Assembly: GCA_964538915.1 (NCBI GenBank)
Contig: CAZIFB010000023.1
Span: 3,294-67,293 of the forward strand
Direction: 5' to 3'
Length of the DNA: 64,000 nucleotides
Source: an uncultured candidatus Brocadiaceae bacterium
Lineage (GTDB): Bacteria > Planctomycetota > UBA1135 > UBA2386
Shown here: positions 10,252 through 60,300 of the stretch, piece after piece
Layout: every line of letters begins with the position of its first letter
How positions within the stretch are numbered: the stretch's first letter is position 1
Notes under the pieces: model-generated
Databases searched by the model: none
Told to the model about the DNA's origin: nothing
The model's input: only the letters and a program-made list of their open reading frames with translations
Position numbers and translations under genes: made by a program

Positions 10252-10260
10252 GGCGTTTCC

Positions 10261-37644: not shown

Positions 37645-37715
37645 CGGAGGACCGTTCCTGTTGAGGTCCGGCAGTCTGGCGGGCCGCTCGGCGCGAGTCC
37701 ACTCCGAGGGCCTCT

Positions 37716-37749: not shown

Positions 37750-37773
37750 TGCCTAGAGTCGCCGCCCCACGCC

Positions 37774-38064: not shown

Positions 38065-38071
38065 CCCACCG

Positions 38072-42182: not shown

Positions 42183-42190
42183 TCACCGCG

Positions 42191-43840: not shown

Positions 43841-44010
43841 GACATCCTCCGCATCCCGTTTCGGCATCGCGCGCGCCACGCGGGTGGACCACTACGGAAA
43901 ACTCCGCCCTGCCGCCCCTGCTCCGGCGCCGAACCCTCGATGGCGCCGGGAGACCCGATCCGGGACGAACTTGCGCGGCCCGGCGACGCCCACCTACCAT
44001 CGCCGCGCGC

Positions 44011-44775
44011 ATGCGACCTTCCGAGCGACCCACGACGCCGCTCCTGCTGTCCGTCCTGGCGGCAGGGCTCTTCGCCGCCTCGGCGAGTTCGCAGACGCCT
44101 CCCGCGGCGCCGAAGGCGGTGGATCCCGCGCCGAAGGCGATCGAGCCGACACCGCAGGATCGGGCGCGCCCGGCGAACGCCACCGAGCTGTTCCGAGCGA
44201 TGGCGGCGATGCGCGGCCTCGAAGCGAGGTTCGAGGAGGAGAAGCACCTGCAGCTGCTCGCCGCTCCGCTGCACAGCTCGGGTGCGCTGTACTTCCTGCG
44301 GCTCGACCCGCGCGACGCGGGGGAAGGGCGCACCGCCGGCGGCTACCTGACGCGTGTCGTCGAGAAGCCCGAGCCGTCGACCGTGCGGATCTCGCCACGG
44401 GAACTGCGTGTGCAGAACCGCGACGGCACCGAAGTCATCGACCTCGAACGCAGCGACAAGGTGCGCACGTTCGTCTCGTCGCTCGTGCAGGTGTTCGCCG
44501 GCGACGAGGCGGCGCTGACGAAGGCGTGGTCCGTCGAGTTCGTCACCGATCCGAAGAGCGACAAGACCTGGACGCTGACGCTGTCGCCGCGCGCGGCGCC
44601 GCTCGACAAGACCGTGAAGAGCCTGCGCCTCGTCGGCGAGGGGCGCGCGATCGTCCGCGTGGAGATGCTGGAGCCGAACGGCGACCGCACCGTGACGCGC
44701 ATCGTCGGCGCCGACCCCGACCGGGCCTTCGACGCCGCCGAGCAGAAGAAGCTGTTCGGCATCGAACCGCGATGA
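44011..44775 (+). CDS. LolA-like outer-membrane lipoprotein-carrier-fold protein (ApeL-like)
   Basis: Signal peptide. FRAMAAMRGLEARFEEEKHLQLLAAPLHSSGALYF matches the LolA-family N-terminal pattern. Sits directly upstream of the MMPL gene. Confidence 0.7.
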   Translation: MRPSERPTTPLLLSVLAAGLFAASASSQTPPAAPKAVDPAPKAIEPTPQDRARPANATELFRAMAAMRGLEARFEEEKHLQLLAAPLHSSGALYFLRLDPRDAGEGRTAGGYLTRVVEKPEPSTVRISPRELRVQNRDGTEVIDLERSDKVRTFVSSLVQVFAGDEAALTKAWSVEFVTDPKSDKTWTLTLSPRAAPLDKTVKSLRLVGEGRAIVRVEMLEPNGDRTVTRIVGADPDRAFDAAEQKKLFGIEPR

Positions 44776-47168
44776 CCGGCGGCGAACGGCCGCGGCTCCT
44801 GCTCGGCGCACTGGTCCTCGCCATCCTGGGCGGGTTCGTCGCGCTGCGATTGCGTGTCACGACCGACATCACGCACTTCCTGCCGCACGGCGAACGCGAC
44901 TCCGACGTCGATCTCGCGCGCCGCATCGCGACCGGGCCGATGAGCCGCACGATGGTCCTGCTCGTCGACACGAACGACCGCGACGAGGCCGCCGCCGTCA
45001 GCAGGACGTTCGAGGCCGAACTGCGCGCGGAGCCGGCGGTCGCGATCGCGGCCGAGTCGATCGAGGGCGGTCCGCCGCCCGGCATCGAGGAGGCGCTGTG
45101 GTCGCTGTGGCACCCGCGACGTTTCGCGTTCCTCGCGGCGGAGACCGACGACGGGCAATCGCGGATCGGCGACGCACGCATCACCGCGGCGGTGGCCGAG
45201 CTGAAACGTCGCCTCGCTTCGCCGATGTCGGGGCTCGTCTCGCGCGTGGCGCCGAGCGATCCGTTCCTCGTGATGCCGCGACTCTTCGAACGCATGTCCG
45301 GCGGCAGCGGCGCCGGGCTCGCGATCGTCGAAGACCGCTTCGTCACGACCGACGGAACCGGAGCCGTGCTCTTCCTCACGACGCGCGCGTCGTCGTCCGA
45401 CTCGACGGCGCAGCGCCCGGTGCTGCGCGGCGTGCAGGACGCGTTCGCCCGCGTCGTGCAGAAGCACGGCCGGCACCTGCGCCTCCGGCGCAGCGGCGCG
45501 AACCGCCACGCGATCGCGGCCGAGGACTCGATGCAGGCGGACATGCAGCGTGTGTCGATCGTGTCGATCGCCGGCCTGCTGTCGCTCTACCTCCTGTTGT
45601 TCCGCTCCGTCCGCCCCGCGCTGCTGTCGCTCCCCGTCCTCGGCGCAGGCTTCCTCGCGGGCACCACCTCCTGCCTGCTCGCTTTCGGCGCGATCCACGG
45701 GCTCACGCTCGCGTTCGGCGCGTCCCTGCTCGGCGTCGCCGTCGACTACTCCCTGCACTTCTATGCGCACGAGGCGCTGTCGCCCGACCCGCGCGGCCCG
45801 CGTTCGACGCTGCGGCGGATCCAGGGCAGCCTCGTGCTGTGCACCGCGACGACGATCGTCGGCTTCGTCGCGCTGCTCGGCTCGACGTTCCCCGGCCTGC
45901 GCGAACTGGCTCTCTTCGCGGCCACCGGCCTCGCGGCCTCGCTCGGCGCAACGTGGCTGATCCTGCCGGCCCTCACCCGCGGCGTCCGCGTCACCCGCGT
46001 GAGCCGTATCCTCACCGGCGGCCTCGCTGCACTCGAAGACCGCCGCACGCGATCGCGGCTCTGGCTCGTGCTCCCGGCGATCGCGATCCTCGTCGCGACC
46101 GCTGTCGGCCTGCCGCGTGCGTCGTGGGACGACAGCGTGCAGAGCCTGAACCGCGTCGATGCGACCTTGAAGGCCGAAGACGACGCCGTGCACGCACGGG
46201 TCGCGCGCTTCGAGCAGCGGCGCGTGCTGGTCACCGAGGGCGCAGACGAGAACGCAGCGCTCACGAACTACCGCACCGTGGCGACGGCGCTCGCTGCCGC
46301 GAAGGACCGGACCGCGATCGCCGACTTCGGCAACATGGCAGCGCTGCTGCCGAGCCCCGATCTGCAGGCACGGGTCGACGCGGCGGTGCGCGGCGACGCG
46401 ACGCTGTGGCCGCGCCTTCGCGACGCACTCGTCGCGGCAGGCTTCAAGACGGAGGCTTTCGCCCCGTTCGTGGAGGACCTCGGCAAGCCGGCGCCCGCGC
46501 CGCTGTTGCCCCGCGATCTCGACGGCACGCCGCTGCAATCGCTCGTGCGGCCGTTCCGCCTCGACCTGCCCGACGGCACGGCGTGGCTCTCGTTCGTGCA
46601 GCGTGCAGAGCCGGAAGCGTTCGCGGCCGCCGGAGCGCTCGGCCCGCAGGCCCTCGGCGAACACACCCGCGTCATCGACATCGAAGCGACCCTGGCCGGC
46701 GCTCTCGCACGCTACCGGGGCAGCATGGTCGAACTGCTGCTGCTCGGCACGCTGGCGGTCGTGGTGCTCGTGGCGGCGAAACAGCGGCGCCTGCGCCCGA
46801 CCCTGCTCGCCTGCGCCCCTCCACTGCTCGCCGCGGCCGGTACGGTCGGCGTGCTCACGCTGGCGGGGGTGCCGATGAACCTGATGAGCCTGATGGCCCT
46901 CCTCATGGTCGTCAGCATGGGCGACGACTACGGCATCTTCCTCGTCGACGACGCCGACGCCGAGTCGCGCGACGCGACCCACCTGTCGGTGATCTCGTCC
47001 GCGATGTCGACGATCTTCGGCTTCGGCCTGCTCGCGATGTCGGACCAGCCTGCGCTCCGTTCGATCGGTCTCGTCTCGATGGTCGGCGTCGTACTCAGCG
47101 TGGTCCTGGCGCTCGCGACCGGCGCGCTGTTCTTGCCGGTCCGCCACGGTGCTTCGCCGGCCCGTTGA
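44772..47168 (+). CDS. MMPL/RND-superfamily exporter (ApeM-like)
   Basis: ATG 44772 overlaps the upstream stop (ATGA). C-terminal 798 aa of track ORF 43377..47168. Two blocks of 5-6 TM helices each follow a large soluble loop. Motifs GVAVDYSLHF and MGDDYGIFLV. Confidence 0.85.
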   Translation: MTGGERPRLLLGALVLAILGGFVALRLRVTTDITHFLPHGERDSDVDLARRIATGPMSRTMVLLVDTNDRDEAAAVSRTFEAELRAEPAVAIAAESIEGGPPPGIEEALWSLWHPRRFAFLAAETDDGQSRIGDARITAAVAELKRRLASPMSGLVSRVAPSDPFLVMPRLFERMSGGSGAGLAIVEDRFVTTDGTGAVLFLTTRASSSDSTAQRPVLRGVQDAFARVVQKHGRHLRLRRSGANRHAIAAEDSMQADMQRVSIVSIAGLLSLYLLLFRSVRPALLSLPVLGAGFLAGTTSCLLAFGAIHGLTLAFGASLLGVAVDYSLHFYAHEALSPDPRGPRSTLRRIQGSLVLCTATTIVGFVALLGSTFPGLRELALFAATGLAASLGATWLILPALTRGVRVTRVSRILTGGLAALEDRRTRSRLWLVLPAIAILVATAVGLPRASWDDSVQSLNRVDATLKAEDDAVHARVARFEQRRVLVTEGADENAALTNYRTVATALAAAKDRTAIADFGNMAALLPSPDLQARVDAAVRGDATLWPRLRDALVAAGFKTEAFAPFVEDLGKPAPAPLLPRDLDGTPLQSLVRPFRLDLPDGTAWLSFVQRAEPEAFAAAGALGPQALGEHTRVIDIEATLAGALARYRGSMVELLLLGTLAVVVLVAAKQRRLRPTLLACAPPLLAAAGTVGVLTLAGVPMNLMSLMALLMVVSMGDDYGIFLVDDADAESRDATHLSVISSAMSTIFGFGLLAMSDQPALRSIGLVSMVGVVLSVVLALATGALFLPVRHGASPAR

Positions 47169-47220
47169 CCTCGGGCCGAATCCTGCGCTGGCGCTGCACC
47201 GACCGGCGCCGCTGCGTATC

Positions 47221-47886
47221 GTGCGCGCCGTGCGTCCCGCCCGCTGCTTGCCGCTCCTCGCCGTCGCCGTCGCCGCTGCCGCGTGCACGACGACGCGGCG
47301 CACGCCGTTCGACGAGATGGAGTATCCGGGCGAATTGCTGCCCGCGCAGGCGGTGCCCGGCGACGTGGTCTGGCAACAACGCGTCACGGCGACCTGGGGA
47401 CTGGCCGGCGGGGAACCGGGCGAACGCGGCTTCGACGCGGCGATCCAGAAGCAGGGAGACGTGCTGACGGTGCTCGGCCTGTCGCCGATGGGTTCGGTCG
47501 GCTTCGCGATGATCCTGCGCGGGACGACGGTCGAGGTGCAGAACCACGCCGACCAGGAGCTGCCGTTCCCCGCGCGATTCGTGCTGCTCGACGTGCAACG
47601 CACCTTCTACCCGTGGCTCGGCGCACCGCTGGCGAACGGGCAGCGCACCGGCGTCGTCGGCGTCGAGGAAGTCACCGAGCGATGGGCGAACGGTCGCCTG
47701 CTCCATCGCACGTTCACCCGCCGCGACGGCAAACCCGCGGGCACGATCGCGGTGACGTACGACTGGCGCGACGACGACGCACGCGACCGGCTCGCGCCCT
47801 CGCGCACCGTGCTCGACAACGGCTGGTTCGGTTACCGCCTCGCGGTCGACACGCACCGAGAGACGAAGCTCGGTCCGTCCCGCTGA
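47221..47886 (+). CDS. DUF3261-like lipoprotein (ApeN-like)
   Basis: Track ORF 47149..47886. Preferred start is GTG 47221, giving VRAVRPARCLPLLAVAVAAAA|C (lipobox). Position after the MMPL gene is as in APE clusters. Confidence 0.6.
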   Translation: MRAVRPARCLPLLAVAVAAAACTTTRRTPFDEMEYPGELLPAQAVPGDVVWQQRVTATWGLAGGEPGERGFDAAIQKQGDVLTVLGLSPMGSVGFAMILRGTTVEVQNHADQELPFPARFVLLDVQRTFYPWLGAPLANGQRTGVVGVEEVTERWANGRLLHRTFTRRDGKPAGTIAVTYDWRDDDARDRLAPSRTVLDNGWFGYRLAVDTHRETKLGPSR

Positions 47887-49004
47887 TGGCCATCCGCGTC
47901 CACGTCGCCGGCCGCGGCGCGATCACCGGCTTCGGCCCGGGCCACCGCCGGTTCGTCGACGCGATCTTCGCCGGCGAGACGGCGATCCGGACGCGCGCGC
48001 GCACTGCTGCGTTCGCGGTCCCGACGAACGTCGCGGCCGAAGTGCCCGGCGATGCACTGCCGCCGGGCCTCGCCGGGCGCGACCACGCCTTCTGGTTCGC
48101 GATCACCGCCGCCCACGAAGCGCTCACCGAAGCGCGCGAACCGCCGCACGACCGCACGATGCTCGTGCTCGCGTCGACGAAGGGCGACCTGTCTGGCGTC
48201 GACGGCGCCGGCGACGGCCTCGGGCAGCCGTGGCGGCTCGGGGCGCGGCTCGCGCACGAACTCGGCATCGGTGGCGACGTGGTGAACGTGTCGTGCGCGT
48301 GCGCGTCCGGCCTCGTGGCGCTCGCCACGGCCGCACGCCGGATCGCGGCCGGCGAAGCCGAGCGCGCCCTCGTCGTCGGCGTCGACGCGCTGCACGCGTT
48401 CGTGATGGCCGGATTCGGTTCACTCAACGCCCTCGACCGCGAACCCTGCCGGCCGTTCGATCGAGCGCGCCGCGGAGTGACCCTCGGCGAGGGTGCGGGC
48501 GCGATCCTGTTGTCGCGCCATGCGCACGAGTCGATCGGCGCCGCCATCGTCGGACACGGCGGCGCCAACGACGCGTGCCACGTCACCGGCCCCGACCGCC
48601 AGGGCGCGGGCATCGCTCTCGCCGCCGCGCGTGCGCTCGCGAACGCGGGGCTCACGACACACGACGTCGACGTGCTGCACCTGCACGGCACCGCGACCGA
48701 GGCGAACGACGCGACCGAGGCGACGGGCCTCGCGCGCCTGTTCGGTGGCCGCACGCCGCCGGCCTTCGGGACGAAGGCGCAGACCGGTCACACGCTCGGC
48801 GCAGCGGGCGTTCTCGAGGCCATCGCCGCCATCGAGTCGCTGCAACGCGGCGAAGCGGCCGCGAACGTCGCACTCGCAGACCCGGACGTCGACGCGGGTC
48901 TCGACCTCGTCCGCGCGCCGCATCGCCTGCCGCGGGCGAAGACCGCGCTCAAGGTCGCGAGCGGGTTCGGCGGCGTGCAGGCCGCGGTGGTGCTCCAGTC
49001 ATGA
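47886..49004 (+). CDS. beta-ketoacyl-ACP synthase (KS, second copy)
   Basis: ATG 47886 overlaps the upstream TGA by 1 nt. Motifs NVSCACASGL, ACHVTGP, HLHGTATEAND, ASGFGGVQAAVVL. Confidence 0.9.
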   Translation: MAIRVHVAGRGAITGFGPGHRRFVDAIFAGETAIRTRARTAAFAVPTNVAAEVPGDALPPGLAGRDHAFWFAITAAHEALTEAREPPHDRTMLVLASTKGDLSGVDGAGDGLGQPWRLGARLAHELGIGGDVVNVSCACASGLVALATAARRIAAGEAERALVVGVDALHAFVMAGFGSLNALDREPCRPFDRARRGVTLGEGAGAILLSRHAHESIGAAIVGHGGANDACHVTGPDRQGAGIALAAARALANAGLTTHDVDVLHLHGTATEANDATEATGLARLFGGRTPPAFGTKAQTGHTLGAAGVLEAIAAIESLQRGEAAANVALADPDVDAGLDLVRAPHRLPRAKTALKVASGFGGVQAAVVLQS

Positions 49005-49654
49005 CGCCTCCCGTCGTCGTGGCCGCCGTCGGCGTCGTCGACGAGATCGGCATCGCGGGGAGCAGCGGTGTGCGCGTGTCCTGGGGCGATCTCGGCATCG
49101 CCGCACCCGGCGACGGCCGCACGTTCCGCGCCGCCTTCGGTCGCAGTGACGAGACGTTCCGCCGGCTCGACGTTGCGTCCCGCACGCTCGTGCTCGCGTG
49201 CGAAGCGCTCGCGCTGCCGGCCGTGCTGGCGCCTGACCGACGCGACGAGACGGCACTGGTCGTCGAGACGACGGCCGGTTGCCTCGACGCGGATCTGCAG
49301 TTCGCCGCGAGCCTCGCCGCGGCGATGCACGACGCGCCGATCTTCCCGTACACGTTGCCGAGCACGTGCCTCGGGGAAGTGGCGCTGCGGCACGGCCTGC
49401 GCGGCATCAGCACCTGCCTGTCGGTCGCACCAGCCTCCCGCGGGGCGGCGCTCGCCGAGGCGACCCGCCTCCTGACGAACGACGAGGCGCCCGCGGTCGT
49501 CGTCGCGAGCGTCGACGTGCTCGTCCGTCCGGATGCGCCGGCCCCGCGCGAGTGCCGGGCCGTGGCCGCGCTGCTGACGACCTCGGCGTCGGGATCGCGC
49601 GCCGTGGCGATCGCGCCGCTCGCCTGGTCGTCGCTGCTCGAAGCCGCGCGCTGA
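49001..49654 (+). CDS. KS N-terminal-like chain-length-factor-type protein (second copy)
   Basis: ATG 49001 overlaps the KS stop (ATGA). 217 aa. FPYTLPSTCLGEVALRHGLRG resembles the KS fold without the catalytic triad. Confidence 0.7.
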   Translation: MTPPVVVAAVGVVDEIGIAGSSGVRVSWGDLGIAAPGDGRTFRAAFGRSDETFRRLDVASRTLVLACEALALPAVLAPDRRDETALVVETTAGCLDADLQFAASLAAAMHDAPIFPYTLPSTCLGEVALRHGLRGISTCLSVAPASRGAALAEATRLLTNDEAPAVVVASVDVLVRPDAPAPRECRAVAALLTTSASGSRAVAIAPLAWSSLLEAAR

Positions 49655-49668
49655 TCGGCGCGGCGGCG

Positions 49669-52461
49669 TCAGCGCACTTCGAAGTGGTACGACCCGCCGC
49701 CGACCTGCACCTCGCAACCGCTCGCGTCGACGCCGACGACGTGCACGGCGCCGGCGGGCGGGCGGACGCGCCCGCGATCGACGAGCAGGTCGCCGCTCTC
49801 GGTCACCGACGCGTCGGGCCGCCCGAGCATCGGCACGACGATCGTCGCGTTCGTGTTCGCGGGAACGTCGACGTCGAGCGCCACCGTCGCTCCGCTTCGC
49901 CGCCACGACACACCGATGCGTCCGCGCACCGAGTCGAAGTGGCCGCGCGCCCACGTGAGATCGCCGACGACGGACGGCTTCACGACGATGTCGCGCCAGG
50001 CCACCGAACCCGGCGCCTGACGGATGCCGAGCAGCGAGCGACGGAACCAGGCGCTCACCGCGGAGTACATCGCGTGGTTGCGCGACCATCCGTCGATGCG
50101 ACTCCAGTGCTCCCACAGCGTCGTGGCCCCCTGGTCGAGCATGTAGCCGTACCCGGGGAACTCGCGGGAACGCACCATGCCGAGCACGAGGTCGTCGCGC
50201 CCGGCGTCGCTCAGCACTTCGAACATGTCGCCCGTCGCGAACATGCCCGTCGACAGGCGGCCGTGTTTCGCCTGGATCTCGTCGAGAAGCACGCCGAACG
50301 CCTTCTCGCGCAGTTCGGGCGGAACGAGCCCGTGGCGCAGCGACGTCGCCTGGCTCGTCTGCGTACGCACGAACACCTGCCCGGTCGCCGGCTCCACCTG
50401 GCGCGCGAACGCGGCTTCGATCGCGCGCGCGAGCGCCTCGAACTCACGCACGTCGTCGGCCCGGCCGAGCACGTTCGCGAGGTCGACGAGGATCGAGACC
50501 ATGCGGTGGTACGCGACGGTCGCCATCAACGGCGAGGGGTTGAAGCCGATGTTGCCGTGATCGCCGAAGCACGCGACCGCGAGATTCTCGGGGGAGCGAT
50601 CGCGGCAGAAGCTCACGAGCCGCCGCACCGTCTCGTACTGCTCTTCGACGAGCCGTCGGTCGCCGTACTCGGTCCAAGCACGGTGCACGAGGTACGGATG
50701 CGCGAGCATCCAGCCGAGCGGTCCGGTGTCCGGCGTGAGACCGCTCTCGTTGACGCCGACATCCGGCGCACATTCGGGCAGGCCGCCGTCGGGCCGCGCG
50801 TCGCGCGCGAAGTCCTCGACCGCCTTCCGGTGCATCGTCGCCATGTCGAAGACGGCCTGGTACGCGGTGGCCGAGGCGACCATGTCGCCGCCGTAGCCGA
50901 AGCGCTCGCGCGCCGGGCAGTCGGACAGCACCGACGACGCATTGCTGAGCAGCGTCCGCACGACGACTTCGTCGATGCGGTTGCACAGTGGATCGGAGCA
51001 CTCGAACGAGGAGACGCGCCGCAGGTCCGCATGCCAGACGAGACCCTCGATGTCGCCCGCGGCGAGAGCGTCGGGCAGACCGGTGACCTCGACGTAGCGG
51101 AAGCCGTGGCACGTGAAGCGCGGCTCGAACACTTCGCGGCCGCCGCCGCGGCAGACGTACGTGTCCTCCTGCAGAGCAACGGGAGGCGCGCCGGGACCGC
51201 CCTTGCCGGGTTCGTTCACCTGCGCCGCGACCGTCGAGGTCGGATCGATCGTGCCGTCGGGCCGCAGCTCTTCGGCGTAACGCAGCACGACCGCCGTGCC
51301 GGCCGGTGCCGTCACCGCGAGCCGAACCGCGCCGGCGAAGTTCTCGCCGAAGTCGACGACCTGCATGCCAGGCAGCGGGCTGGTCACCGCGACCGCTTGC
51401 ACCGTTCGTGACTGCCGCACGGGCGGGATCGGCAGGCAGCGCAGTTCGCCGCCAGGCGCCGCGACGACGTCGGCCCGCCGCCACGCGCGGTCGTCGAAGC
51501 CGGGGTCGTCCCATCCGTCGGGCCACGCCGCTGCAGCGAAGCGTTCGCCGAGATAGACGTTGTCGCGCAGCACGGGGCCCGGCGCCGTCCGCCACGAACG
51601 ATCCGACACGACACGCACGATCCGTCCGTCGCGCTGCACGACCTCGAGCACGCACCACAGCTTCGGCTGCCCGCACGCGAGCGTCGTGCGCAGGTCGAGA
51701 CGCCCCCACAGCCTCAGCGGCAGCGGGTCGTACCAGCCGCGGCCGAGCATGACGCCCAGAGCGTTCTCGCCGTCGTGCACGAACGACGTCACGTCGTGGA
51801 CGACGTACGGAACGACGGTCGAGTAGCGGGTCCACGCCGGCTGGAGGAGTTCGTCGCCGACGCGCCGGCCGTTCAACCGCGCCTCGTGGAAGCCGAGACC
51901 GCAGACGTATAGGCGGGCGCGCAGCGGCTCACCGTCGATGCGGAACGTGCGGCGGAGCAGCGGTGCGGGCCGGTCGCGGTAGTGGTCCTCGGCGCGCGTC
52001 GGAGCCTCCTGACCGTCGCCTATCCAGAGCGCGGCTCGATCGTTGGAGCGAAGGAGTCCGGTCTCGAACCACGTCGGCGTCGCGGACGCCGATTCCGCGC
52101 CCTCGGCGTTCCACGTGCGCACCGTCCACCAGTAGCGCGTGGCGCTCGCGAGCCGCGGCCCGCCCCACACGACGTGCAGGCTCTCGTCGCTCCCGACGCG
52201 GCCGGAGTCCCACACGTCGGGCTTCTCGTCGGCGAGCAGAGCAGGCGCGGTGGCCACCAGGATCCGGAACGCCGTCTGGCGGGCGCTGCGCGCCGCATCG
52301 ACGAACCGCCACGACAGCCGCGGGTTCTCGACGTCGACGCCCAGCGGGGTCGAGACGTACTCGCAGCGCAGGTCGGTCGGCGGTTCGCCGAGCGACGAAC
52401 TCCAGGGGAACGAGCACGCCGCAGCCAGCACGGCGAACGGCAGGAGCGACGACTTCCTCAT
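49669..52461 (-). CDS. GH78 alpha-L-rhamnosidase (lipoprotein signal)
   Basis: Start moved to ATG 52461 (MRKSSLLPFAVLAAA|C) inside track ORF 49669..53376. N-terminal LRCEYVSTPLGVDVENPRLSWRF plus QTAFRILVA is the classic bacterial rhamnosidase N-terminus. 930 aa. Confidence 0.9.
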   Translation of the reverse strand: MRKSSLLPFAVLAAACSFPWSSSLGEPPTDLRCEYVSTPLGVDVENPRLSWRFVDAARSARQTAFRILVATAPALLADEKPDVWDSGRVGSDESLHVVWGGPRLASATRYWWTVRTWNAEGAESASATPTWFETGLLRSNDRAALWIGDGQEAPTRAEDHYRDRPAPLLRRTFRIDGEPLRARLYVCGLGFHEARLNGRRVGDELLQPAWTRYSTVVPYVVHDVTSFVHDGENALGVMLGRGWYDPLPLRLWGRLDLRTTLACGQPKLWCVLEVVQRDGRIVRVVSDRSWRTAPGPVLRDNVYLGERFAAAAWPDGWDDPGFDDRAWRRADVVAAPGGELRCLPIPPVRQSRTVQAVAVTSPLPGMQVVDFGENFAGAVRLAVTAPAGTAVVLRYAEELRPDGTIDPTSTVAAQVNEPGKGGPGAPPVALQEDTYVCRGGGREVFEPRFTCHGFRYVEVTGLPDALAAGDIEGLVWHADLRRVSSFECSDPLCNRIDEVVVRTLLSNASSVLSDCPARERFGYGGDMVASATAYQAVFDMATMHRKAVEDFARDARPDGGLPECAPDVGVNESGLTPDTGPLGWMLAHPYLVHRAWTEYGDRRLVEEQYETVRRLVSFCRDRSPENLAVACFGDHGNIGFNPSPLMATVAYHRMVSILVDLANVLGRADDVREFEALARAIEAAFARQVEPATGQVFVRTQTSQATSLRHGLVPPELREKAFGVLLDEIQAKHGRLSTGMFATGDMFEVLSDAGRDDLVLGMVRSREFPGYGYMLDQGATTLWEHWSRIDGWSRNHAMYSAVSAWFRRSLLGIRQAPGSVAWRDIVVKPSVVGDLTWARGHFDSVRGRIGVSWRRSGATVALDVDVPANTNATIVVPMLGRPDASVTESGDLLVDRGRVRPPAGAVHVVGVDASGCEVQVGGGSYHFEVR

Positions 52462-54878
52462 CGGCGGGGCACCGCGGCGAGCGGCCGTCCATCGGCGTCG
52501 ATGTCGCGATCGACCGCCGCGAGGCACCGCGCGAGATGCGGATCGCCGTCGCGGCGCAACAGACCGAGCGTCACCGTCGCGAGCTGCGCGAGGACTTCGT
52601 CGATGAGCTCGGTGGCGACGCCGTAGAACAGGAAGTTGATCGGCGCGAGATCGCCGAGAGCGAGCAGCGTCCGCGTGCGACCCGACGCAAAGCGGAACGT
52701 CCAGCGATGGCCGTACACGCGCGCCGTGCGAGGGTCGAGCAGTTCGCCGACGCCGATCGCGACCGCTTCGCCGCCGATCGTCGGAGCCTCTTCGCGAAGT
52801 TTGCCGCCGAACCACGACATCACGTCGCGGAACTCGACCTTCTTCGTCGATCCGCTCGCGAGCACGAGCGCGGACTTCGTGCCGTGCAGGAGCCAGCGTT
52901 CGACGTCCGCACCCTGCACGACGCTCTGGCCCGTGACGCCGGTCACGAGATCCACGTCGAGCCACGCATCGCCGACGCCCGCCAGAGTGAGCGCCTCGGG
53001 AACGCCGGTGCCCCGTCCCCGCCCGGCCTCGAGGTCGACGCCCAGCACCCGCTGCTCGTCGATGCGGGGCAGGAGCGCGCGACAGAGTTCCGAGCCGATC
53101 GCGCCGCGCGAGCCGAGAACGAGGCAGGTGCGCCGCGCCAGGATGCGACCGTCGGCGTTCAGCACGGTCTCGACGGCGTTCAGGATCGACGCGGCGACCT
53201 CGCGCGACTCGACCTCGCGCTTCAGCCGCGAGATCGCGATCGAGAACGAGGGCAGCGCGAGCCGTCCGTGTGCACGCTCGACCTCGACGAGCCGGTCGAA
53301 GCCGTTGCGGGTGTGCTCGACGGTGCCGTGCAGCCGCCCCGCGAAGACGCTCTCCGCGGGACGCTCGTCGGCGCACGCGTGGCCGAGCGCCGCGGCGAAC
53401 GCGCGCACGCTGTCACCGCGCAGCATCGCGTCCTGCACGACGGGACCGAGGTAACCGCCGTCCTCGACGAGCAGCATGCGCTGCCCTGCGCGTTCGGCGC
53501 GGTCGATCTGCGCGAGAAAGGGAACGACGGCCGCGGCCCGCATCGCCGTCACGTAGGCATGGTCGTTGCCGGCGAGCGCACGTTCGATCGCAGGGGCCTC
53601 GTCGAGGCGCGAATACGCGTGCGAAGGGCGATAGCGGCCCTCGACACGATCGGCCGCCGGAACGTGCACGAGCGCCAGCGCGCGGAACTCGTCGGGCGGC
53701 AGGTCGAGCACGGCGTCGAGGTAACTCGCCGGTGGCTCGCCCGCGTACGACACGAACAAGCAGCAGAGGTCGCGGCACCCGAGGGCACGCAGGGCACCGA
53801 TCAGCCCGACGACCTCGGCCGTCATGTGGTGCACCAGGAAGACCGGCGTCGCGCGCAACGGCGCGTCGGCGTTCGCATCGACCACCGCCCGCAGCGCGGG
53901 CATGCGCTGCAGGAACGCGTCGACGTCGGGACACTCACGGCGCTGACCGATCGACAGCTCGAGCACACGTCCGAGCTGCGCCAGGTCGAGGAACACCGGG
54001 ATCGCTCCGGTGTCGATCCGCACGACCTCGCGGGCCGCGAGCAGGCGGCGCACGTTCTGGTCCTCGAGCGCGAGCAGCACGCGCTTCACCCGATCGGTGA
54101 TCTCGGACGGCGCGCTGTCGATGAGCATCGACACGGCGCTCTCCGGCCACTGGATCGACACCCGCTGGATCGCGGAGAGACCCGCCTGGTCGAACTGGCG
54201 GAAGAGATGGCTGTGCGGACTCCGGCTCTCGACGAACGAACGGCGGCCGCGTTCGGCCTCGCGGCGCAGTGCCTCCGCCCACGTCTCCGCGATGCGGGTC
54301 GAACCGGCGATGAAGTGGCGGTCCTCCGCGTCCGCGACCGGCACGTGCGCGATGCGGGCGATGTCGATGCATCCGACCGCACCGCAGTCGACCGTGAGCC
54401 GCAGACCGGCGGCGGCGGCGGCGCTCGACGGCAGGTGTTCGAGCACGACGCGGCGTCGGCCGTTCGTGCCGCTGAACTCCGCGACGAGCGCCCGCGACGA
54501 CGACCGATCGGCCGGCAGGAGCGCATCGCGATAGCGCTGCCGCTGCAGGCTGCCCAGCACTGCGCGCAGGTGCATCTCGAGGAGGTCGGGCCGAGCCACG
54601 AACTCGGCGACCAGCGCCGGTTGCACCACGAGGTGAACGACCTCGATGCCGAACACCTCGACCAGTTCGGGCGTCTCGCGTGCGCGGAGGCGGCGTTCGA
54701 TCGCTGCGTCGGGGCGCTCGCTGCGGGCGCGCACACCGATCATCTCGGCGAGCGCACGCGACAACACCGACAGGCCGTGCATGACGGCGAGCGAACCGAC
54801 GGCGAGGACCCAGGTGCCGTCGTGGCGTTCGAGCGGCGGGCCGATCGAGGTTTCGAGGCGGGCAGGGGCGTCGTTCAT
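52458..54878 (-). CDS. 806-aa hypothetical protein: unassigned ~330-aa N-terminal half plus very divergent adenosylhomocysteinase-like NAD-binding half
   Basis: ATG 54878 overlaps the upstream stop and its own stop overlaps the rhamnosidase ATG (both ATGA). By-eye parallels to AdoHcyase: LLVEDGGYLGPVV (53430-53474) vs DDGGD, VEHTRNGFDRL (53289-53321) vs EETTTGVxRL, LVLGSRGAIGSE (53088-53123) vs GYGDVGKG. Confidence 0.7.
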   Translation of the reverse strand: MNDAPARLETSIGPPLERHDGTWVLAVGSLAVMHGLSVLSRALAEMIGVRARSERPDAAIERRLRARETPELVEVFGIEVVHLVVQPALVAEFVARPDLLEMHLRAVLGSLQRQRYRDALLPADRSSSRALVAEFSGTNGRRRVVLEHLPSSAAAAAGLRLTVDCGAVGCIDIARIAHVPVADAEDRHFIAGSTRIAETWAEALRREAERGRRSFVESRSPHSHLFRQFDQAGLSAIQRVSIQWPESAVSMLIDSAPSEITDRVKRVLLALEDQNVRRLLAAREVVRIDTGAIPVFLDLAQLGRVLELSIGQRRECPDVDAFLQRMPALRAVVDANADAPLRATPVFLVHHMTAEVVGLIGALRALGCRDLCCLFVSYAGEPPASYLDAVLDLPPDEFRALALVHVPAADRVEGRYRPSHAYSRLDEAPAIERALAGNDHAYVTAMRAAAVVPFLAQIDRAERAGQRMLLVEDGGYLGPVVQDAMLRGDSVRAFAAALGHACADERPAESVFAGRLHGTVEHTRNGFDRLVEVERAHGRLALPSFSIAISRLKREVESREVAASILNAVETVLNADGRILARRTCLVLGSRGAIGSELCRALLPRIDEQRVLGVDLEAGRGRGTGVPEALTLAGVGDAWLDVDLVTGVTGQSVVQGADVERWLLHGTKSALVLASGSTKKVEFRDVMSWFGGKLREEAPTIGGEAVAIGVGELLDPRTARVYGHRWTFRFASGRTRTLLALGDLAPINFLFYGVATELIDEVLAQLATVTLGLLRRDGDPHLARCLAAVDRDIDADGRPLAAVPRR

Positions 54879-56323
54879 GGCCGCCCTCCGTCCGAATCCT
54901 CGTGCTCCACCACCGCCTTGATGCATGCGCGCGAACCGGCGACGGCGAACGCGCGCGCGAGGTCGGCCGCGGCGAAGCGATGCGTGACGAGCCGTTCGCC
55001 GATGCGTCGCAGATCCGCGTCCGCCGCGAGCAGTTCCAGCGCACGACGGAAGTCGCCGCAGCGCGAACTCGACAACACGAGGCCGCGCGCGACAACGGCC
55101 TGCAGCAGTTCCGAACCGGCGACCTCCGCCGTGGGCGTCACCAGGACGGTGCCGCGCGGCCTCACCAGCGACCGCTCGTCGCCCGCACGGGGCCTGATCG
55201 CCGCGTCGACCTCGGCGGCGTTCCCCGCCACGGCGACGGTGGCGCGCGGCAGACCCGTGGTCTCGCGGTCGAACTCCACGGCAAGGGCCGCCGCATCGCG
55301 TCCGGCGCGGACGTCCGCGGTCGCGGCGAGCCACGCGGGCGGCGGCGATGCGGCGAGCCACGCGATGCGCGGGCGCCCGCCGATCGCGAGCTGCTGCCAC
55401 TCGGACGCACCGGGCGCGGGCGGCCGATCCGGGAAGCGCGCGATCGAGAGTTCGTCGACGACGAGCGCCGTGAGGTTCGCGAGCCCGCACGACACGCGAC
55501 CGTGCGTCGACTTCAGGTGGACTTCACGGCGCGCGATGCGCACCGCGGTCGGGAGGCCCTCGGGGTTGCCCGTCGTGTCGATCACGACGTCGCACGACGC
55601 CTCGGGCACGCCACCGGCGGCGAGCACGTGCACTTCGTCCGCGCCGCAGGCCGTCGCGAGTTCGCGCAACGACGGATCGCGCACGAAGGCCACGACGGAG
55701 AAGTCCGCGCCCGCGCGGCGGCGCTCCGCACGCACACCGGCCAGCGCCGCGACGACGAGCATGCCGAGGCGGCGCGGTCCGAGCACGGCGATGCGGTCAC
55801 CTGCGCGCGGAGCGATCGAATCGACGGCGTGCAACGCAGCGGCGAAGGGCTCGACGAGCACCGCAGCGGTGTCCGGCACCACGTCCGGCACTTCGAGGCA
55901 CGCGTCGACCGGCGCGAGCAGCCAGGGACCGAAGCCGCCCGGCAGGCCGTGGATGCCGAGCGTCAGTCGATCGGGGCAGTGTGTGTGCAGCCCGGCGCGG
56001 CAGAACGCACACTCGGCGACGCCGCGAGCGTGGTGGGACGCGTTGATCTCCACCACGTACCGGCGACCGGCGTCGTCGCGCGCGATCACTTCGTGGCCGG
56101 TGACCTGCGGCAGCGGGAACGGCAGGTGGTGCCGGGCGAGATCGGTCGAACAGACACCGCACTGACGCGTCCGCAACAGCCGGTAGCCGGGGCCGAGTTC
56201 GAGCACGACCGCGCCGTCGCGCTGCACCGTCCAGCCGCGGTCGTTGCCGCGCAGCCGATAGTGCGCCGGCACGAACGTCGTGTCCTGCCGGTAGTCCAGG
56301 GCGTCGAACTCCACGGTGGTCAT
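54875..56323 (-). CDS. zinc-type medium-chain dehydrogenase/reductase (MDR) with ~110-aa insertion
   Basis: ATG 56323 overlaps the kinase stop (ATGA). Motifs RQCGVCSTDL, VTGHEV, LVEPFAAAL, degenerate Rossmann AVLGPRRLG. Extra segment ARFPDRPPAPGASEWQQLAIGG...VAVAGNAAEVDAAI. Confidence 0.8.
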   Translation of the reverse strand: MTTVEFDALDYRQDTTFVPAHYRLRGNDRGWTVQRDGAVVLELGPGYRLLRTRQCGVCSTDLARHHLPFPLPQVTGHEVIARDDAGRRYVVEINASHHARGVAECAFCRAGLHTHCPDRLTLGIHGLPGGFGPWLLAPVDACLEVPDVVPDTAAVLVEPFAAALHAVDSIAPRAGDRIAVLGPRRLGMLVVAALAGVRAERRRAGADFSVVAFVRDPSLRELATACGADEVHVLAAGGVPEASCDVVIDTTGNPEGLPTAVRIARREVHLKSTHGRVSCGLANLTALVVDELSIARFPDRPPAPGASEWQQLAIGGRPRIAWLAASPPPAWLAATADVRAGRDAAALAVEFDRETTGLPRATVAVAGNAAEVDAAIRPRAGDERSLVRPRGTVLVTPTAEVAGSELLQAVVARGLVLSSSRCGDFRRALELLAADADLRRIGERLVTHRFAAADLARAFAVAGSRACIKAVVEHEDSDGGRP

Positions 56324-57504
56324 CCGATCTCTCCCGGGCCGTTGCCGATGCGGAGGACGTCGAACGCCGGGTGCACACCGAAGCGCGCCTCGAACGCCTC
56401 GCCGACGCGGCGGCCGACCGACGCCGACGAACCGGGGCGCAGCAGCGCGATCGCACATCCGCCGAAACCGGCGCCGGTGAGCCGCGCGCCGAAAACGCCG
56501 TCGCACCCGCGCGCCGCGTCCGTGATGACGTCGAGTTCGTCGCAGCTCACGTCGAAGTCCGCGGCCGTCGAGCGATGGCTCGCGTCGAGCTGGGCACCGA
56601 GCGTCGCGTAGTCGTGGCGACGCAACGCGGCGACCGCGAACGCCGTGCGTTCCATCTCGGTGACGACGTGGCGCGCACGACGGAACGACACTTCGTCCAT
56701 GGCTTCGCGGCTCGATTCGAGTTCGGCCAGCGAATACGAGGCGAGGTGCGGCAGGTCGCGAACGTGCGTGCGCAGGATCTCGTGGGCGGTCGCACACTGG
56801 GCGACCCGCTCGTTGAAGCCGCTCTTGGCCAGGTGCCGCGGCTTCTTCGTGTCCATCACGAGCACTTCGCAGGCCTGCGGATCGAAGGGCACGTGCTCCC
56901 ACCGCGGCCCCGCACAGCGCAGCAACAGCACCTGGCCGGCCCGCCCGAGCGCCGACGCGAACTGGTCCATGATGCCGCAGCGGACGCCGACGAACCCCGT
57001 CTCCGCGCGGTGCGCGATCAAGGCGAGCTGCTGGCGATCCAGCCGGGTGTCGTGCAGTGCGTCGAGCGCGAGCGCGGTGACCACTTCGATCGCCGCGGAC
57101 GACGACAGGCCGGAAGCCATCGGCACGTCGCCGCCGAAGACGACGTCCATGCCCTTCGTGACACCGGTGCGTTGCTGGAAGCCGTGCCACACGCCGATGG
57201 GATACGCCGCCCACCCCCACTCCGAACGCATGCGCCGGCCCACCGCCGCGACGTCGAGGTCCACGGCGAGCTGCTGGTCCAGGCTGCGCAGCCGCAGGCG
57301 ACCGTCGGCGCGCGCAACCGCCGCTGCGTAGATGCCCCGGTCGACCGCCATCGGGAGCACGTCACCGCCGTTGTAGTCGAGGTGCGCACCGACCAGGTTG
57401 ATGCGCCCGGGTGCGAAGAAGCATCGCGGCAGCGCCCCGCCGAACTCACCGCGAAAGCGCCCGACGACGGCATCGAGCAGGGCGGGTCGCGTGGGGACGG
57501 ACAT
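56320..57504 (-). CDS. GHMP sugar kinase, galactokinase-like with altered signature
   Basis: Start set to ATG 57504 (track gives 57552). GRINLVGAHLDYNGG (57373-57408 covers GRINLVGAHLDY), GGDVPMASGLSSSAA (GHMP motif II), GARLTGAGFGGC (motif III). Confidence 0.85.
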   Translation of the reverse strand: MSVPTRPALLDAVVGRFRGEFGGALPRCFFAPGRINLVGAHLDYNGGDVLPMAVDRGIYAAAVARADGRLRLRSLDQQLAVDLDVAAVGRRMRSEWGWAAYPIGVWHGFQQRTGVTKGMDVVFGGDVPMASGLSSSAAIEVVTALALDALHDTRLDRQQLALIAHRAETGFVGVRCGIMDQFASALGRAGQVLLLRCAGPRWEHVPFDPQACEVLVMDTKKPRHLAKSGFNERVAQCATAHEILRTHVRDLPHLASYSLAELESSREAMDEVSFRRARHVVTEMERTAFAVAALRRHDYATLGAQLDASHRSTAADFDVSCDELDVITDAARGCDGVFGARLTGAGFGGCAIALLRPGSSASVGRRVGEAFEARFGVHPAFDVLRIGNGPGEIG

Positions 57505-57629
57505 GGACGAACCATCGAACTGGTGCGCAGCGTCCCGCGCAAGCCATGCCATCGCCCGATGCGGGCGCGGCTCGTTCCGGGAATGCCCGCGTAACGGCGT
57601 CGTGCGGGCGGGCTATACCTTGGGTGCGT

Positions 57630-58715
57630 ATGCCGAAGCTCTCGCTGACGACGATCACCGCCTTCCTGCTGCCGTTCTCCGTCGCCGTCGCGCAGGACAC
57701 TCCCGCGCAGGAAACTCCCGCGCCATCGGCGGCAGCCCCCGCCCAGGCGCCGCACCACGTCGTTCGCCGTTTCCCGCAGGACCGCGACGTCACGATCGCG
57801 ATCGTCGGCACGCGCGCGCTCTCGCTCGGCGATCTCGTCGATCACATCGACGCGAAGCACTACCCGGGCTTCCGCAAGGCCATGGAGACGCGGCCCGAGT
57901 TCCAGCGCATGCTGCAGTCCGACCTGATCGCGCCATGGGTGCGCCAGTTCGTGGACATCGAGGCGCTCCGGCAGACGGCGAAGCAGAAGGTCGACGAAGA
58001 GAAGCTGATCGCCGCGCAGAGTGCCGCGCTGAAGAACATGTTCCAGGGCTGGCTCGACTCCTACATCAACGAAGCCCGGTCGAAGGGTCGCCCCGACCCG
58101 TCGCAGCGCACGGTGAACGTGCTGCTCTCGGACTTCCAGCTCCGCAACGGCCTCGCGGCGGAGATGCAGGGCTGGCTCGACTACCTGGAGCCCGACGACT
58201 ACTCGCGCGGCCAGTTGCAGAAGTTCTTCACGGAGCACGCGCGCTACTTCGGTGGCCGCGTGAACATCCGGCACATCCTCGTGCAGAACCGCGACGCCGG
58301 CACGGGCATCCTGCTGACGGAGGAGGGTGTCGCCCGCGCCGCCGCCCGGCTGGCCGACATCAAGGGCCGCCTGCTCAGGGACGGTTCCAACTTCGAGGAA
58401 CTCGCCCGTCTCTACTCCGACGACACGAAGACGGCCCAGCAGGGCGGTGAGTTGAAGGGCATCCTGCGTTTCGACGATCGTCTGCCCGCGCCGCTCTGCC
58501 GCGCGGCGTGGATGCTCGAGGACGGCCAGATGAGCGACGTCGTCGAGACGCAGTACGGCTGGCACCTCGTGAAGCGCGTCGACTTCGACCAGAACATGTT
58601 CATCCTCTTCACCGACGACGCGATCCCGACGATCCGCGACGTGATGCACCGAGCCAGGCAGGAAGAGCGGCTCTTCGCGGCGCGCCACGACACCGAGCGG
58701 CAGCTGATGCTCTGA
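57630..58715 (+). CDS. secreted parvulin-type peptidyl-prolyl isomerase (SurA/PrsA-like)
   Basis: Start moved to ATG 57630 (MPKLSLTTITAFLLPFSVAVAQD). Parvulin domain: RHILVQNRD...FEELARLYSDD...GGELKGILRFDDRLPAPLCRAAWMLEDGQMSDVVETQYGWHLVK. Confidence 0.8.
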   Translation: MPKLSLTTITAFLLPFSVAVAQDTPAQETPAPSAAAPAQAPHHVVRRFPQDRDVTIAIVGTRALSLGDLVDHIDAKHYPGFRKAMETRPEFQRMLQSDLIAPWVRQFVDIEALRQTAKQKVDEEKLIAAQSAALKNMFQGWLDSYINEARSKGRPDPSQRTVNVLLSDFQLRNGLAAEMQGWLDYLEPDDYSRGQLQKFFTEHARYFGGRVNIRHILVQNRDAGTGILLTEEGVARAAARLADIKGRLLRDGSNFEELARLYSDDTKTAQQGGELKGILRFDDRLPAPLCRAAWMLEDGQMSDVVETQYGWHLVKRVDFDQNMFILFTDDAIPTIRDVMHRARQEERLFAARHDTERQLML

Positions 58716-59068: not shown

Positions 59069-60277
59069 ATGCAGGTCACCGCGCAAGACGTCGCCAGCGC
59101 CTTCCTCGCGATCCAGAATCACGTGCAGCGGACACCGACGGTCGCGGCGCCGCGACTCGGGGAGATGCTGGGATGTCGGCTGTTCCTGAAGCTCGAGAAC
59201 CTGCAGTTCACCGGCTCGTTCAAGGACCGCGGGAGTTGCCTCAAGCTCCAGCGACTCGCGCAGGCGAACGATCCGCCGGCAGGCGTGGTCGCCGCGTCGG
59301 CCGGCAACCACGCCCAGGGCGTCGCGTACCACGCGCGCCGGCTCGGCCTTCCCGCGGCGATCGTGATGCCGCAGACGACGCCGTTCTCGAAGGTCGAGCG
59401 CACGGAGGCTCTCGGCGCCGAAGTGCTGCTGCGCGGCGAGTCGGTGGCCGAGTCGACGACGTACGCCCAGGAACTCGCGCGGCAGCGCAACTTCGCGTTC
59501 GTGCACCCGTACGACGATCCGGTCGTCGTCGCGGGCCAGGGCACGGTCGCGCTCGAGATGCTCGAGGACCGCCCCGAGATCGACACGCTCGTCGTGCCGA
59601 TCGGCGGCGGCGGCCTCTGCAGCGGGATGGCGATCTGGGGCAAGCACGTGAAGCCGGCGATGCGCGTCTACGGCGTGCAGACCGAGATGTGCCCGTCGAT
59701 GCGAGCGGCGATCCGCGGCGAACCGATGCCCGCGTTGCGAACGCACACGCTGGCGGACGGCATCGCGGTGAAGACGCCCGGCGTGGTGACGCAGGAGATC
59801 CTGAAGGCGCTCGTCGACGACGTCCTGCTCGTCGACGAGGTCGACATCGAGACCGCGGTGCAGACCCTGATCGCGCAGCAGAAGGTCGTCGCGGAGGGCG
59901 CCGGTGCGGCGGGTTTCGCGGCGCTGCAGAAGCACGCCGGGTTCTTCCGCGATCGCACCGTCGGCGTCGTGATCTGCGGCGGCAACATCGATCGGCGCAT
60001 GCTGTCGACGGTGCTGCTGCGCGGGCTGAAGCGCGACGGCAAGGTCGCGAAGCTGCGCATATCCATCCACGACGTTCCGGGCGTGCTCGCCCGCGTGACG
60101 CAGATGATCGGTGCCGCGGGCGCCGACATCATCGACATCGAGCACCAGCGGCTGTTCAACAACCTGGCACCGCGCCAGGCCGAACTGGACGTCGTGATGG
60201 AGACGCGCGGCAAGGCGCACGTCGACCAGATCCTTCTGACCCTCGAAGCGGCGGGCTTCCCGGCGCACGCGCTCTAG
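59069..60277 (+). CDS. ilvA: threonine ammonia-lyase (PLP-dependent, short form with one ACT-like domain)
   Basis: Motifs ENLQFTGSFKDRG (PLP Lys), ASAGNHAQGVA, VPIGGGGL. C-terminal regulatory ACT-like segment KLRISIHDVPGVLARV. Confidence 0.9.
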   Translation: MQVTAQDVASAFLAIQNHVQRTPTVAAPRLGEMLGCRLFLKLENLQFTGSFKDRGSCLKLQRLAQANDPPAGVVAASAGNHAQGVAYHARRLGLPAAIVMPQTTPFSKVERTEALGAEVLLRGESVAESTTYAQELARQRNFAFVHPYDDPVVVAGQGTVALEMLEDRPEIDTLVVPIGGGGLCSGMAIWGKHVKPAMRVYGVQTEMCPSMRAAIRGEPMPALRTHTLADGIAVKTPGVVTQEILKALVDDVLLVDEVDIETAVQTLIAQQKVVAEGAGAAGFAALQKHAGFFRDRTVGVVICGGNIDRRMLSTVLLRGLKRDGKVAKLRISIHDVPGVLARVTQMIGAAGADIIDIEHQRLFNNLAPRQAELDVVMETRGKAHVDQILLTLEAAGFPAHAL

Positions 60278-60300
60278 GCGCTGCCGTCGCGATCCGTACG

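Follow-up and report, generated by a model that had tools for sequence, protein, structure and literature searches.

Enzymes with the fold of S-adenosylhomocysteine (SAH) hydrolase (SAHH, or AdoHcyase) have long been held to do one job, with a catalytic set comprising His55, Asp131, Glu156, Lys186, Asp190, and His301 in the human numbering. The description of AgmF from angustmycin biosynthesis, a SAHH homolog that rejects SAH, holds NAD+ tightly, and catalyzes a reversible dehydration of a nucleoside sugar, made clear that other chemistry in which NAD is recycled can be built on it (PMC8599513). Mutagenesis of AgmF found His56, Asp129, Lys184, Asp188, and His299 to be essential (PMC8599513). 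The locus considered here is a four-gene operon on the minus strand (49669-57504) of a 64 kb, 71% GC stretch of DNA from an uncultured candidatus Brocadiaceae bacterium, the whole of which is referred to below as the window. From upstream to downstream, it encodes a GalK-family sugar kinase, a protein resembling zinc-dependent medium-chain dehydrogenases/reductases (MDRs), an 806-aa protein with an AdoHcyase-like half, and a GH78 alpha-L-rhamnosidase. We tentatively suggest, at a little under even confidence, that the second and third products form a heteromeric SAHH-fold/MDR NAD enzyme, and that this enzyme was recruited into a glycan-salvage operon in one planctomycete lineage.

The 806-aa protein (52458-54878, minus strand) has no match in Pfam or NCBIfam, including PF05221 and PF00670, and its best phmmer match in the PDB has an E value of 0.33; asked whether it might belong to a characterized family, as the original prediction allowed, we find it in no curated family of either database. 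A profile built from its relatives recovers AdoHcyases in the PDB weakly (E values 0.001-0.05) and in two separate regions. An AlphaFold model computed with 36 homologs has a pLDDT of 87.3, and the top 50 Foldseek matches to this model in the PDB are all SAHH or SAHH-like proteins, with E values of 1e-14 to 6e-13. These matches cover the C-terminal ~490 aa, at target-normalized TM-scores of 0.55-0.68 and sequence identities of 13-18%. As modeled, then, the C-terminal half of the protein (aa ~317-806; 52461-53930, minus strand, as delimited by Foldseek and profile) is a divergent SAHH fold, and the AdoHcyase-like assignment first made from the translation alone is borne out by structural comparison.

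The correspondence extends to individual residues. In the HMMER alignment, H351-M-T353 falls on the His-Met-Thr of the SAHH substrate loop (the His being that of LHMT), E521-H522-T523 on the SAHH Glu-Glu-Thr, K553 on the catalytic Lys, and E557 on the catalytic Asp; G589-x-x-G592-x-x-G595 and D615 correspond to the dinucleotide-binding loop and the acidic residue that follows it. Conservation was assessed in 32 sequences that sample all phyla and reach down to 28% identity. The invariant positions include H350, H351, T353, E355, the EDGGY motif (472-476), EHT-NG (521-526), K553, E557, G589, G592, G595, and D615, and nearly all of them fall in the SAHH-like half. Two of these, T353 and E355, occupy the positions of SAHH Thr57 and Glu59, which we take to be adenine contacts.

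The N-terminal domain (aa 1-316; 53931-54878, minus strand) has no detectable relatives. Modeled alone it reaches a pLDDT of 90.6, and few of its residues are invariant across phyla. A Pfam search of 17 members at E values up to 5 returned no consistent family, and a Foldseek search of the PDB gave no significant structural match (best E value 0.07). A Pol-beta-type nucleotidyltransferase or small alarmone synthetase fold, to which many of these weak matches pointed, was considered and rejected. The family as a whole is large: an exhaustive profile search recovered at least 157 clusters at 50% identity (E value ≤1e-30), some of which contain the SAHH-like half only, joined to Cupin_5 and DUF952, to an EF-hand, or to an M4 peptidase.

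The gene upstream (54875-56323, minus strand; 482 aa) encodes a long-form zinc-MDR-like protein. Its sole detected Pfam domain is a weak ADH_N (31.9 bits); PF00107 (ADH_zinc_N) was not detected in the Pfam scan, and the best PDB matches are uncharacterized or polyol-type zinc MDRs. The catalytic zinc ligands C58, H77, E78, and E158 are kept in all 31 MDR sequences compared. Most long forms, the protein in the window among them, have GPRRLG as their nucleotide loop, where the short forms have GDGRLG; relative to the short forms, the long forms carry an insertion of ~150 aa. Judged by these residues, the partner appears to be a zinc protein whose binding of NAD is in doubt.

The association of these two proteins was evaluated in a scan of one genome per species, which recovered relatives of the 806-aa protein in 137 genomes; 80 loci were examined, all from metagenome-assembled genomes and with flanks of up to 10 kb. 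These loci span approximately seven phyla, with representatives in the Planctomycetota, Binatia, Leptospirales, Syntrophales, Desulfobacteraceae, Elusimicrobia, Holophagae, and other groups. In ~54 of the 73 loci with enough flank, again across ~7 phyla, the gene immediately upstream of the 806-aa gene encodes an MDR. The junction that joins them in the window, an ATGA overlap of the MDR stop and the 806-aa start (54875-54878, minus strand), recurs as a 4-nt overlap in 29 loci from several phyla, and the two genes are fused in frame in loci L005 and L035 and in proteins P0015, P0094, P0102, P0109, and P0111 (1280-1306 aa).

The outer genes of the operon are linked far more narrowly. The kinase gene stands upstream of the MDR-806 pair in 12 of 80 loci, all in Planctomycetota, at a kinase-MDR spacing of -4 to +195 nt; the order persists down to 67% kinase identity across these 12 species-level genomes. 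Most Planctomycetota MDR-806 loci are without the kinase. The GH78 gene lies downstream of the pair in four of 80 loci, always with a 4-nt overlap. Synteny of all four genes in other genomes, the lack of which would on its own terms refute the original prediction, is confined to these four in 80, all close Planctomycetota relatives, and this counts largely against that prediction; the junctions of the four-gene form are very tight in five of five genomes when the window is included. Viewed from the kinase side, three members of the kinase clade encoded on long contigs (70-77% identity, with the GAHLDY motif described below) adjoin the same peptidylprolyl isomerase (PPIase), threonine-dehydratase, and methylase genes as the kinase in the window, with no 806-aa gene behind any of them. 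From the synteny counts and this kinase-side check, therefore, it is the MDR and 806-aa protein that make up the robust unit; linkage to the kinase is confined to a lineage, and linkage to GH78 to a subclade.

One of these three loci bears on the history of the kinase. At L084:8001-10169, a GAHLDY kinase is followed after 15 nt by a short MDR (321 aa; its loop, GDGKLG, is canonical), with no 806-aa gene in the vicinity. This short MDR shares 43% identity with 806-paired Syntrophales MDRs and 36% with the MDR in the window, and belongs to the same subfamily. Because kinase and MDR occur together here without an 806-aa gene, the kinase-MDR link may predate the one to the 806-aa protein.

Beyond the pair itself, all-against-all clustering of flanking open reading frames (ORFs), which is noisy in high-GC DNA, gave clade-specific neighbors and no universal third partner. 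Cupin_5 (DUF985) is fused to 806-aa homologs in P0074 (984 aa) and P0193 (954 aa), and is encoded directly downstream of 806-aa homologs in unrelated lineages (L077:12559-13143, L081:2881-3468, L083:6533-7123). No MDR was detected beside the 806-aa gene at these three loci, the upstream flank of L081 being too short to judge. Cupin_5 is the family of Cff1p/YML079w, an RmlC-like protein that has been crystallized with nucleotide and is needed in yeast for the furanone MHF, a mimic of AI-2 (PMC8092285; PMC13267403). The Leptospiraceae carry an MDR-806-NUDIX operon, in which a 141-aa NUDIX gene overlaps the 806-aa stop by 4 nt (L055:6010-6429, L060:12424-12843, L062:6301-6720, L063:4468-4887, L064:4932-5354); no NCBIfam subfamily was assigned to these NUDIX proteins. 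In a branch at 43-44% identity without an adjacent MDR, a 322-aa GT2 gene meets the 806-aa stop, with a 4-nt overlap in L043 and L044 and a 4-nt gap in L048 (L043:12436-13401, L044:6293-7258, L048:12450-13415). Genes for an RmlA-like nucleotidyltransferase, an RmlB-like dehydratase, and a glycosyltransferase lie upstream in L003. An NTP_transf_3 gene overlapping the MDR in L167 was considered as a further sugar gene and not counted; it is MobA-like and goes with a neighboring molybdoenzyme. Some clades have signaling neighbors instead, among them a HAMP membrane protein, a ParA-like ATPase, STAS, and a methyl-accepting chemotaxis protein. The anomeric kinase, the RmlA- and RmlB-like enzymes, GT2, NUDIX, and Cupin_5 suggest a shared theme, in that several of these neighbors point to sugars with a phosphate or nucleotide handle.

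The kinase (56320-57504, minus strand; 394 aa) is a GalK-family GHMP anomeric sugar kinase with an altered sugar pocket. It matches the Pfam domains GalKase_gal_bdg, GHMP_kinases_N, and GHMP_kinases_C, aligns over its full length to Lactococcus lactis GalK (1pie; E value 2e-66), passes TIGR00131 (270.7 bits against a cutoff of 226.65), and falls below the cutoffs of four other galactokinase equivalog models. What it has in common with canonical GalK (TIGR00131; 1PIE and human GALK1) is this full-length homology, the phosphate-binding motif of GHMP kinases (PMASGLSSSAA), and two residues, Arg and Asp, in contact with the anomeric hydroxyl. What differs is the sugar pocket: relative to 1PIE, Glu42 is replaced by Ala40, Thr44 by Leu42, and Tyr233 by Phe230. 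In the 1PIE structure, Glu42 and Tyr233 are reportedly galactose ligands, and both are conserved in GalK. The galactose-binding signature GEHTDY thus reads GAHLDY (G39-A40-H41-L42-D43-Y44; 57373-57390, minus strand), and the Phe230 codon lies at 56815-56817 (minus strand). The GAHLDY motif and S/T-G-F-N-E-R occur in all 13 linked orthologs and in 14 further members of the clade. A metagenome scan with the kinase supplied 76 other GalK homologs, mostly distant canonical GalKs suited to motif statistics and not to synteny, in which Glu is found at the GEHTDY position in 74 and Tyr at the Phe230 position in 75, the single exception belonging to the same clade as the kinase. The description of the kinase as atypical in the original prediction can therefore be made precise: both replacements are fixed in its clade and nearly absent elsewhere. 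Nor is there a Leloir context, as no galT or galE was found among the ~40 window ORFs scanned, all outside 2-5011 and 5604-6881. The kinase is very probably an active anomeric kinase with an altered sugar preference; specificity for D-galactose appears unlikely because the pocket is remodeled at Ala40 and Phe230. The clade-specific pair of Glu-to-Ala and Tyr-to-Phe replacements is, by itself, a testable specificity switch.

The last gene (49669-52461, minus strand; 930 aa) encodes a GH78 alpha-L-rhamnosidase with a complete five-domain architecture that includes the six-hairpin catalytic domain; PF25788, PF08531, PF05592, PF17389, and PF17390 all score above their cutoffs, at E values of 1e-71 to 9e-20. 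Basic at its start, the N-terminus of this protein (MRKSSLLPFAVLAAAC) continues in a hydrophobic stretch free of charge that leads to AAC16, and it fits the lipoprotein signal pattern (PROSITE PS51257); the signal peptide of lipoprotein type would comprise aa 1-16, ending in Cys16 (52414-52461, minus strand). Architecture and signal agree with what had been proposed for this protein. No hydrophobic N-terminal segment is found in the kinase, the MDR, or the 806-aa protein, in keeping with the earlier view that the first three products lack signal peptides.

The operon itself was also correctly delimited in the original prediction. The four minus-strand frames translate without interruption to 394, 482, 806, and 930 aa, with a third-position GC of 0.88-0.90 in each that matches the coding signature of the 71% GC window, and the start of the kinase at 57504 agrees with the 100% identical database protein P0265. 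The coordinates and junctions of the three predicted ATGA overlaps are exact. Apart from the MDR/806-aa junction, these are the kinase stop/MDR start (56320-56323, minus strand), found elsewhere as a 4-nt overlap only in L004 and L025 and replaced by a gap of 3-195 nt in the other 10 loci, and the 806-aa stop/GH78 start (52458-52461, minus strand), kept in four of four other GH78-bearing loci. These overlaps are evidence for co-transcription and translational coupling, as originally claimed, yet they are unremarkable in themselves, because coding frames in this DNA ordinarily meet in a 4-nt [A/G]TGA overlap, of which the 64 kb hold at least 12. Upstream, the operon ends at a divergent PPIase gene (start 57629), and downstream at a convergent ketosynthase gene (end 49654). 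A sequence scan found no sigma-70-like promoter or intrinsic terminator inside 49300-58000; the intergenic region between the kinase and PPIase genes (57505-57628), which has no sigma-70 consensus, is presumably the promoter region, and a hairpin 3′ of the GH78 stop does not exceed shuffled sequence in stability (z = -0.3).

How might such a module work? In the explanation we hold tentatively, the functional core would be a two-protein, sometimes single-chain, enzyme. In the manner of SAHH-type enzymes, whose NAD-binding loop and corresponding residues it keeps, the 806-aa protein would use tightly held NAD+ to oxidize a secondary alcohol of a bound sugar ring; the neighboring proton, thereby acidified, would be removed, elimination or epimerization would follow, and the hydride would be returned, leaving the reaction redox-neutral overall. 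The substrate may be a furanose or pyranose with a phosphate or nucleotide handle, that is, a sugar-1-phosphate, a nucleotide sugar, or a nucleoside. We favor redox-neutral chemistry on a substrate of this kind because of the AgmF precedent and the theme among the neighbors, which suggests a link to sugar or nucleotide-sugar metabolism. The MDR partner, with its zinc site kept and its NAD loop degenerate, probably binds or polarizes the substrate, or runs a second half-reaction. In one Planctomycetota subclade, the module would have been placed behind a remodeled kinase and before an exported GH78 in a coupled operon, where it most likely serves the salvage or breakdown of sugar freed from rhamnose-containing glycans. 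The planctomycete hosts are known as degraders of complex, sulfated, rhamnose-rich glycans. A more specific version, in which the pair and the kinase constitute a new phosphorylative route from an anomeric phosphate for a uronic or 6-deoxy sugar from rhamnose-containing glycans, the pair being a new class of SAHH-fold complex that converts a sugar-1-phosphate or nucleotide sugar directly and redox-neutrally (by epimerization, dehydration/hydration, or isomerization), strikes us as unlikely.

Several observations weigh against a recruited, two-protein sugar enzyme. At the level of the active site, SAHH Glu156 is His522 in the 806-aa protein, no counterpart of SAHH His301 was mapped in it, and D473 of the EDGGY motif is equated with SAHH Asp131 by motif resemblance only; to our knowledge, moreover, no member of the family has been characterized. 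At the level of gene order, 19 of the 73 loci have no adjacent MDR, the neighbors of the pair are heterogeneous with no third gene universally linked, the GH78 gene is linked in five genomes only (including the window), and an 806-aa gene follows none of the three same-clade kinases on long contigs. No transporter or nucleotidyltransferase gene was found in the four-gene operon. The kinase's link to the pair may simply be inherited gene order, since its clade occurs without the MDR-806 module.

This last point leads to the alternative we regard as entirely credible, if somewhat improbable: that the operon is incidental. Here the kinase would be the ordinary housekeeping GalK-family enzyme of the lineage, fixed in a block of PPIase, threonine-dehydratase, and methylase genes, and the MDR-806 module, and later GH78, would have arrived behind it. 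Co-transcription would then not mean a common pathway, and the module's substrate would be unrelated, for example an adenosine-type nucleoside such as a by-product of S-adenosylmethionine chemistry. The occurrence of the same kinase clade beside PPIase and threonine-dehydratase genes without an 806-aa gene is what such a history would leave, as are the absence of the kinase from most Planctomycetota MDR-806 loci, the variable kinase-MDR spacing, and the status of 4-nt overlaps as the default junction; the invariance of T353 and E355, presumed to sit where SAHH contacts adenine, would also suit a nucleoside. Chance placement does not, however, readily account for a kinase-MDR-806 order that 12 species-level genomes retain at kinase identities as low as 67%, for an MDR of the same subfamily behind the kinase even where the 806-aa gene is missing (L084), for the very tight four-gene form in five of five genomes, or for the ties of the module to sugar and nucleotide-sugar genes in other clades.

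A dedicated pathway for L-rhamnose (a 6-deoxy sugar), in which GH78 frees L-rhamnose, the kinase makes L-rhamnose-1-phosphate, and the MDR and 806-aa protein oxidize or rearrange it, would explain the translational coupling between the 806-aa gene and GH78, seen in all five genomes with the latter. A pocket that loses two polar ligands and gains Leu42 is likewise compatible with a less hydroxylated sugar, and neither RhaABD nor non-phosphorylative rhamnose genes were found in the scanned parts of the window. But a GH78 link is confined to four of 80 other genomes, phyla and loci without a rhamnosidase widely carry the module, and an exported GH78 would have to feed three cytoplasmic proteins in an operon that encodes no transporter. 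Further, a Glu-to-Ala replacement at this motif position is reportedly a mark of plant galacturonate kinase, which would point to a uronic acid instead. We therefore regard a dedicated rhamnose pathway as decidedly improbable. The undescribed (deoxy)sugar route of the original prediction is upheld in part: the kinase and the 806-aa protein are as odd as it supposed, and a conserved MDR-806 unit exists, but that unit does without kinase and GH78, and rhamnose specificity is not shown, given four-gene synteny in four of 80 genomes, a pair found elsewhere without kinase or GH78, and a kinase clade found without the 806-aa gene. Least probable of all, to the point that we give it very little credence, is that MDR-806 is a regulatory, sensory, or defense module that binds NAD or nucleotide, with the N-terminal domain as effector or sensor. 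The poor conservation of that domain and its lack of a known fold match would fit, as would the signaling neighbors of some clades and the N6 DNA methylase near the operon in the window lineage; yet the methylase belongs to the kinase synteny block and not to the module, and the SAHH-like catalytic residues and MDR zinc ligands are invariant, as in enzymes. A PADLOC scan of all four proteins gave no match, and an anti-phage role was dropped.

The operon lies outside any polysaccharide-utilization locus. None of the ~40 ORFs scanned is a rhamnose (RhaABD or LRA1-4 type), galactose, or uronate catabolic gene, and for these parts of the window the earlier statement that no known rhamnose pathway fits holds, for galactose as well. 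The scanned part carries a two-part aryl-polyene-like lipid cluster, genes of the glyoxylate shunt, peptidases, and large proteins of planctomycete type. The aryl-polyene/flexirubin-like lipid set occupies two blocks (17681-21882, plus strand; 34874-49654, both strands) and includes a ketoreductase-type short-chain dehydrogenase/reductase (SDR), two halogenase-like FAD enzymes, five ketosynthase-like genes, an O-methyltransferase, a GT2, a lipid A-type acyltransferase, a thioesterase, a LolA-like protein, an MMPL protein, and DUF3261. The glyoxylate shunt is represented by malate synthase (30241-31959, plus strand) beside isocitrate lyase (32100-33341, plus strand). Among the large proteins are one of 1755 aa with FG-GAP repeats, DUF7133, HEAT repeats, a cytochrome c motif, and a 3-keto-disaccharide hydrolase domain (22282-27549, plus strand), and one of 922 aa with polyglycine-hydrolase-like BTRD1 repeats before a beta-lactamase-fold domain (27565-30333, minus strand); a coding frame of at least 1670 aa (2-5011, minus strand; third-position GC 0.90) runs off the window start. 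Two blocks recur around related kinases. An Eco57I-type N6 DNA methylase and a threonine dehydratase (PALP and ACT) form a conserved pair in this lineage (window 59069-62211, plus strand; L084:1027-4365, L085:3041-6366), and no restriction partner of the methylase was seen in the stretches read. A block of HXXSHH (DUF1552), NAD-epimerase-like, and S46 dipeptidyl-peptidase genes directly follows the kinase in L084:10664-15266 and L085:10315-13748; in the window, the same block lies ~40 kb from the kinase (8227-11412 and 16000-17340, minus strand), and the region between has therefore been rearranged or inserted.

The SAHH-fold/MDR family, with its own architecture, a zinc-protein partner, and a wide yet unannotated distribution, gives enzyme discovery a well-defined target. 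Should the kinase link be functional, the locus would contribute a sugar route with an anomeric phosphate as its starting point; and if the more specific phosphorylative version above is true, the recurrent Cupin_5 link would suggest a role for related modules in making or processing keto-sugar or furanone-type products. Comparison with known systems places both halves of the module at some distance from their relatives. Zinc MDRs of the polyol/threonine dehydrogenase type (PF08240 and PF00107) share ADH_N and the catalytic zinc ligands with the MDR-like protein, which differs in having no detected ADH_zinc_N, an Arg for the middle Gly of GxGxxG in most long forms, the ~150-aa insertion, three of the four structural-zinc Cys, and the 806-aa protein as its partner. 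The enzymes of dTDP-L-rhamnose synthesis (RmlB, RmlC, RmlD) are alike in logic only, in that bound NAD oxidizes the sugar, elimination or epimerization follows, and reduction completes the sequence; they use SDR folds where the module combines SAHH and MDR, and the window has no nucleotidyltransferase or Cupin_5 gene, although Cupin_5, of RmlC-like fold, is fused or adjacent to 806-aa homologs elsewhere.

Compared with SAHH (PF05221/PF00670), the 806-aa protein shares the two-domain fold (substrate and NAD domains), an NAD-binding glycine loop with an acidic residue (D615) after it, the LHMT His, the Thr, the catalytic Lys, and an acidic residue four positions on. It differs in its 13-18% identity and lack of a Pfam or NCBIfam match, in His522 for Glu156, in a GxxGxxG loop for GxGxxG, in the extra 316-aa N-terminal domain and large insertions that bring it to 806 aa against ~420-500 aa, and in being paired or fused with an MDR rather than standing alone. 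AgmF is, by contrast, a stand-alone SAHH homolog of normal length, annotated as SAHH and encoded in a nucleoside-antibiotic cluster, and it depends on His299, for which no equivalent was located in the 806-aa protein. Its His56, Lys184, and Asp188 nevertheless correspond to H351, K553, and E557, its Asp129 probably to D473, and it provides the precedent of a SAHH-fold enzyme that carries out oxidation, elimination, and re-reduction without SAH hydrolysis.

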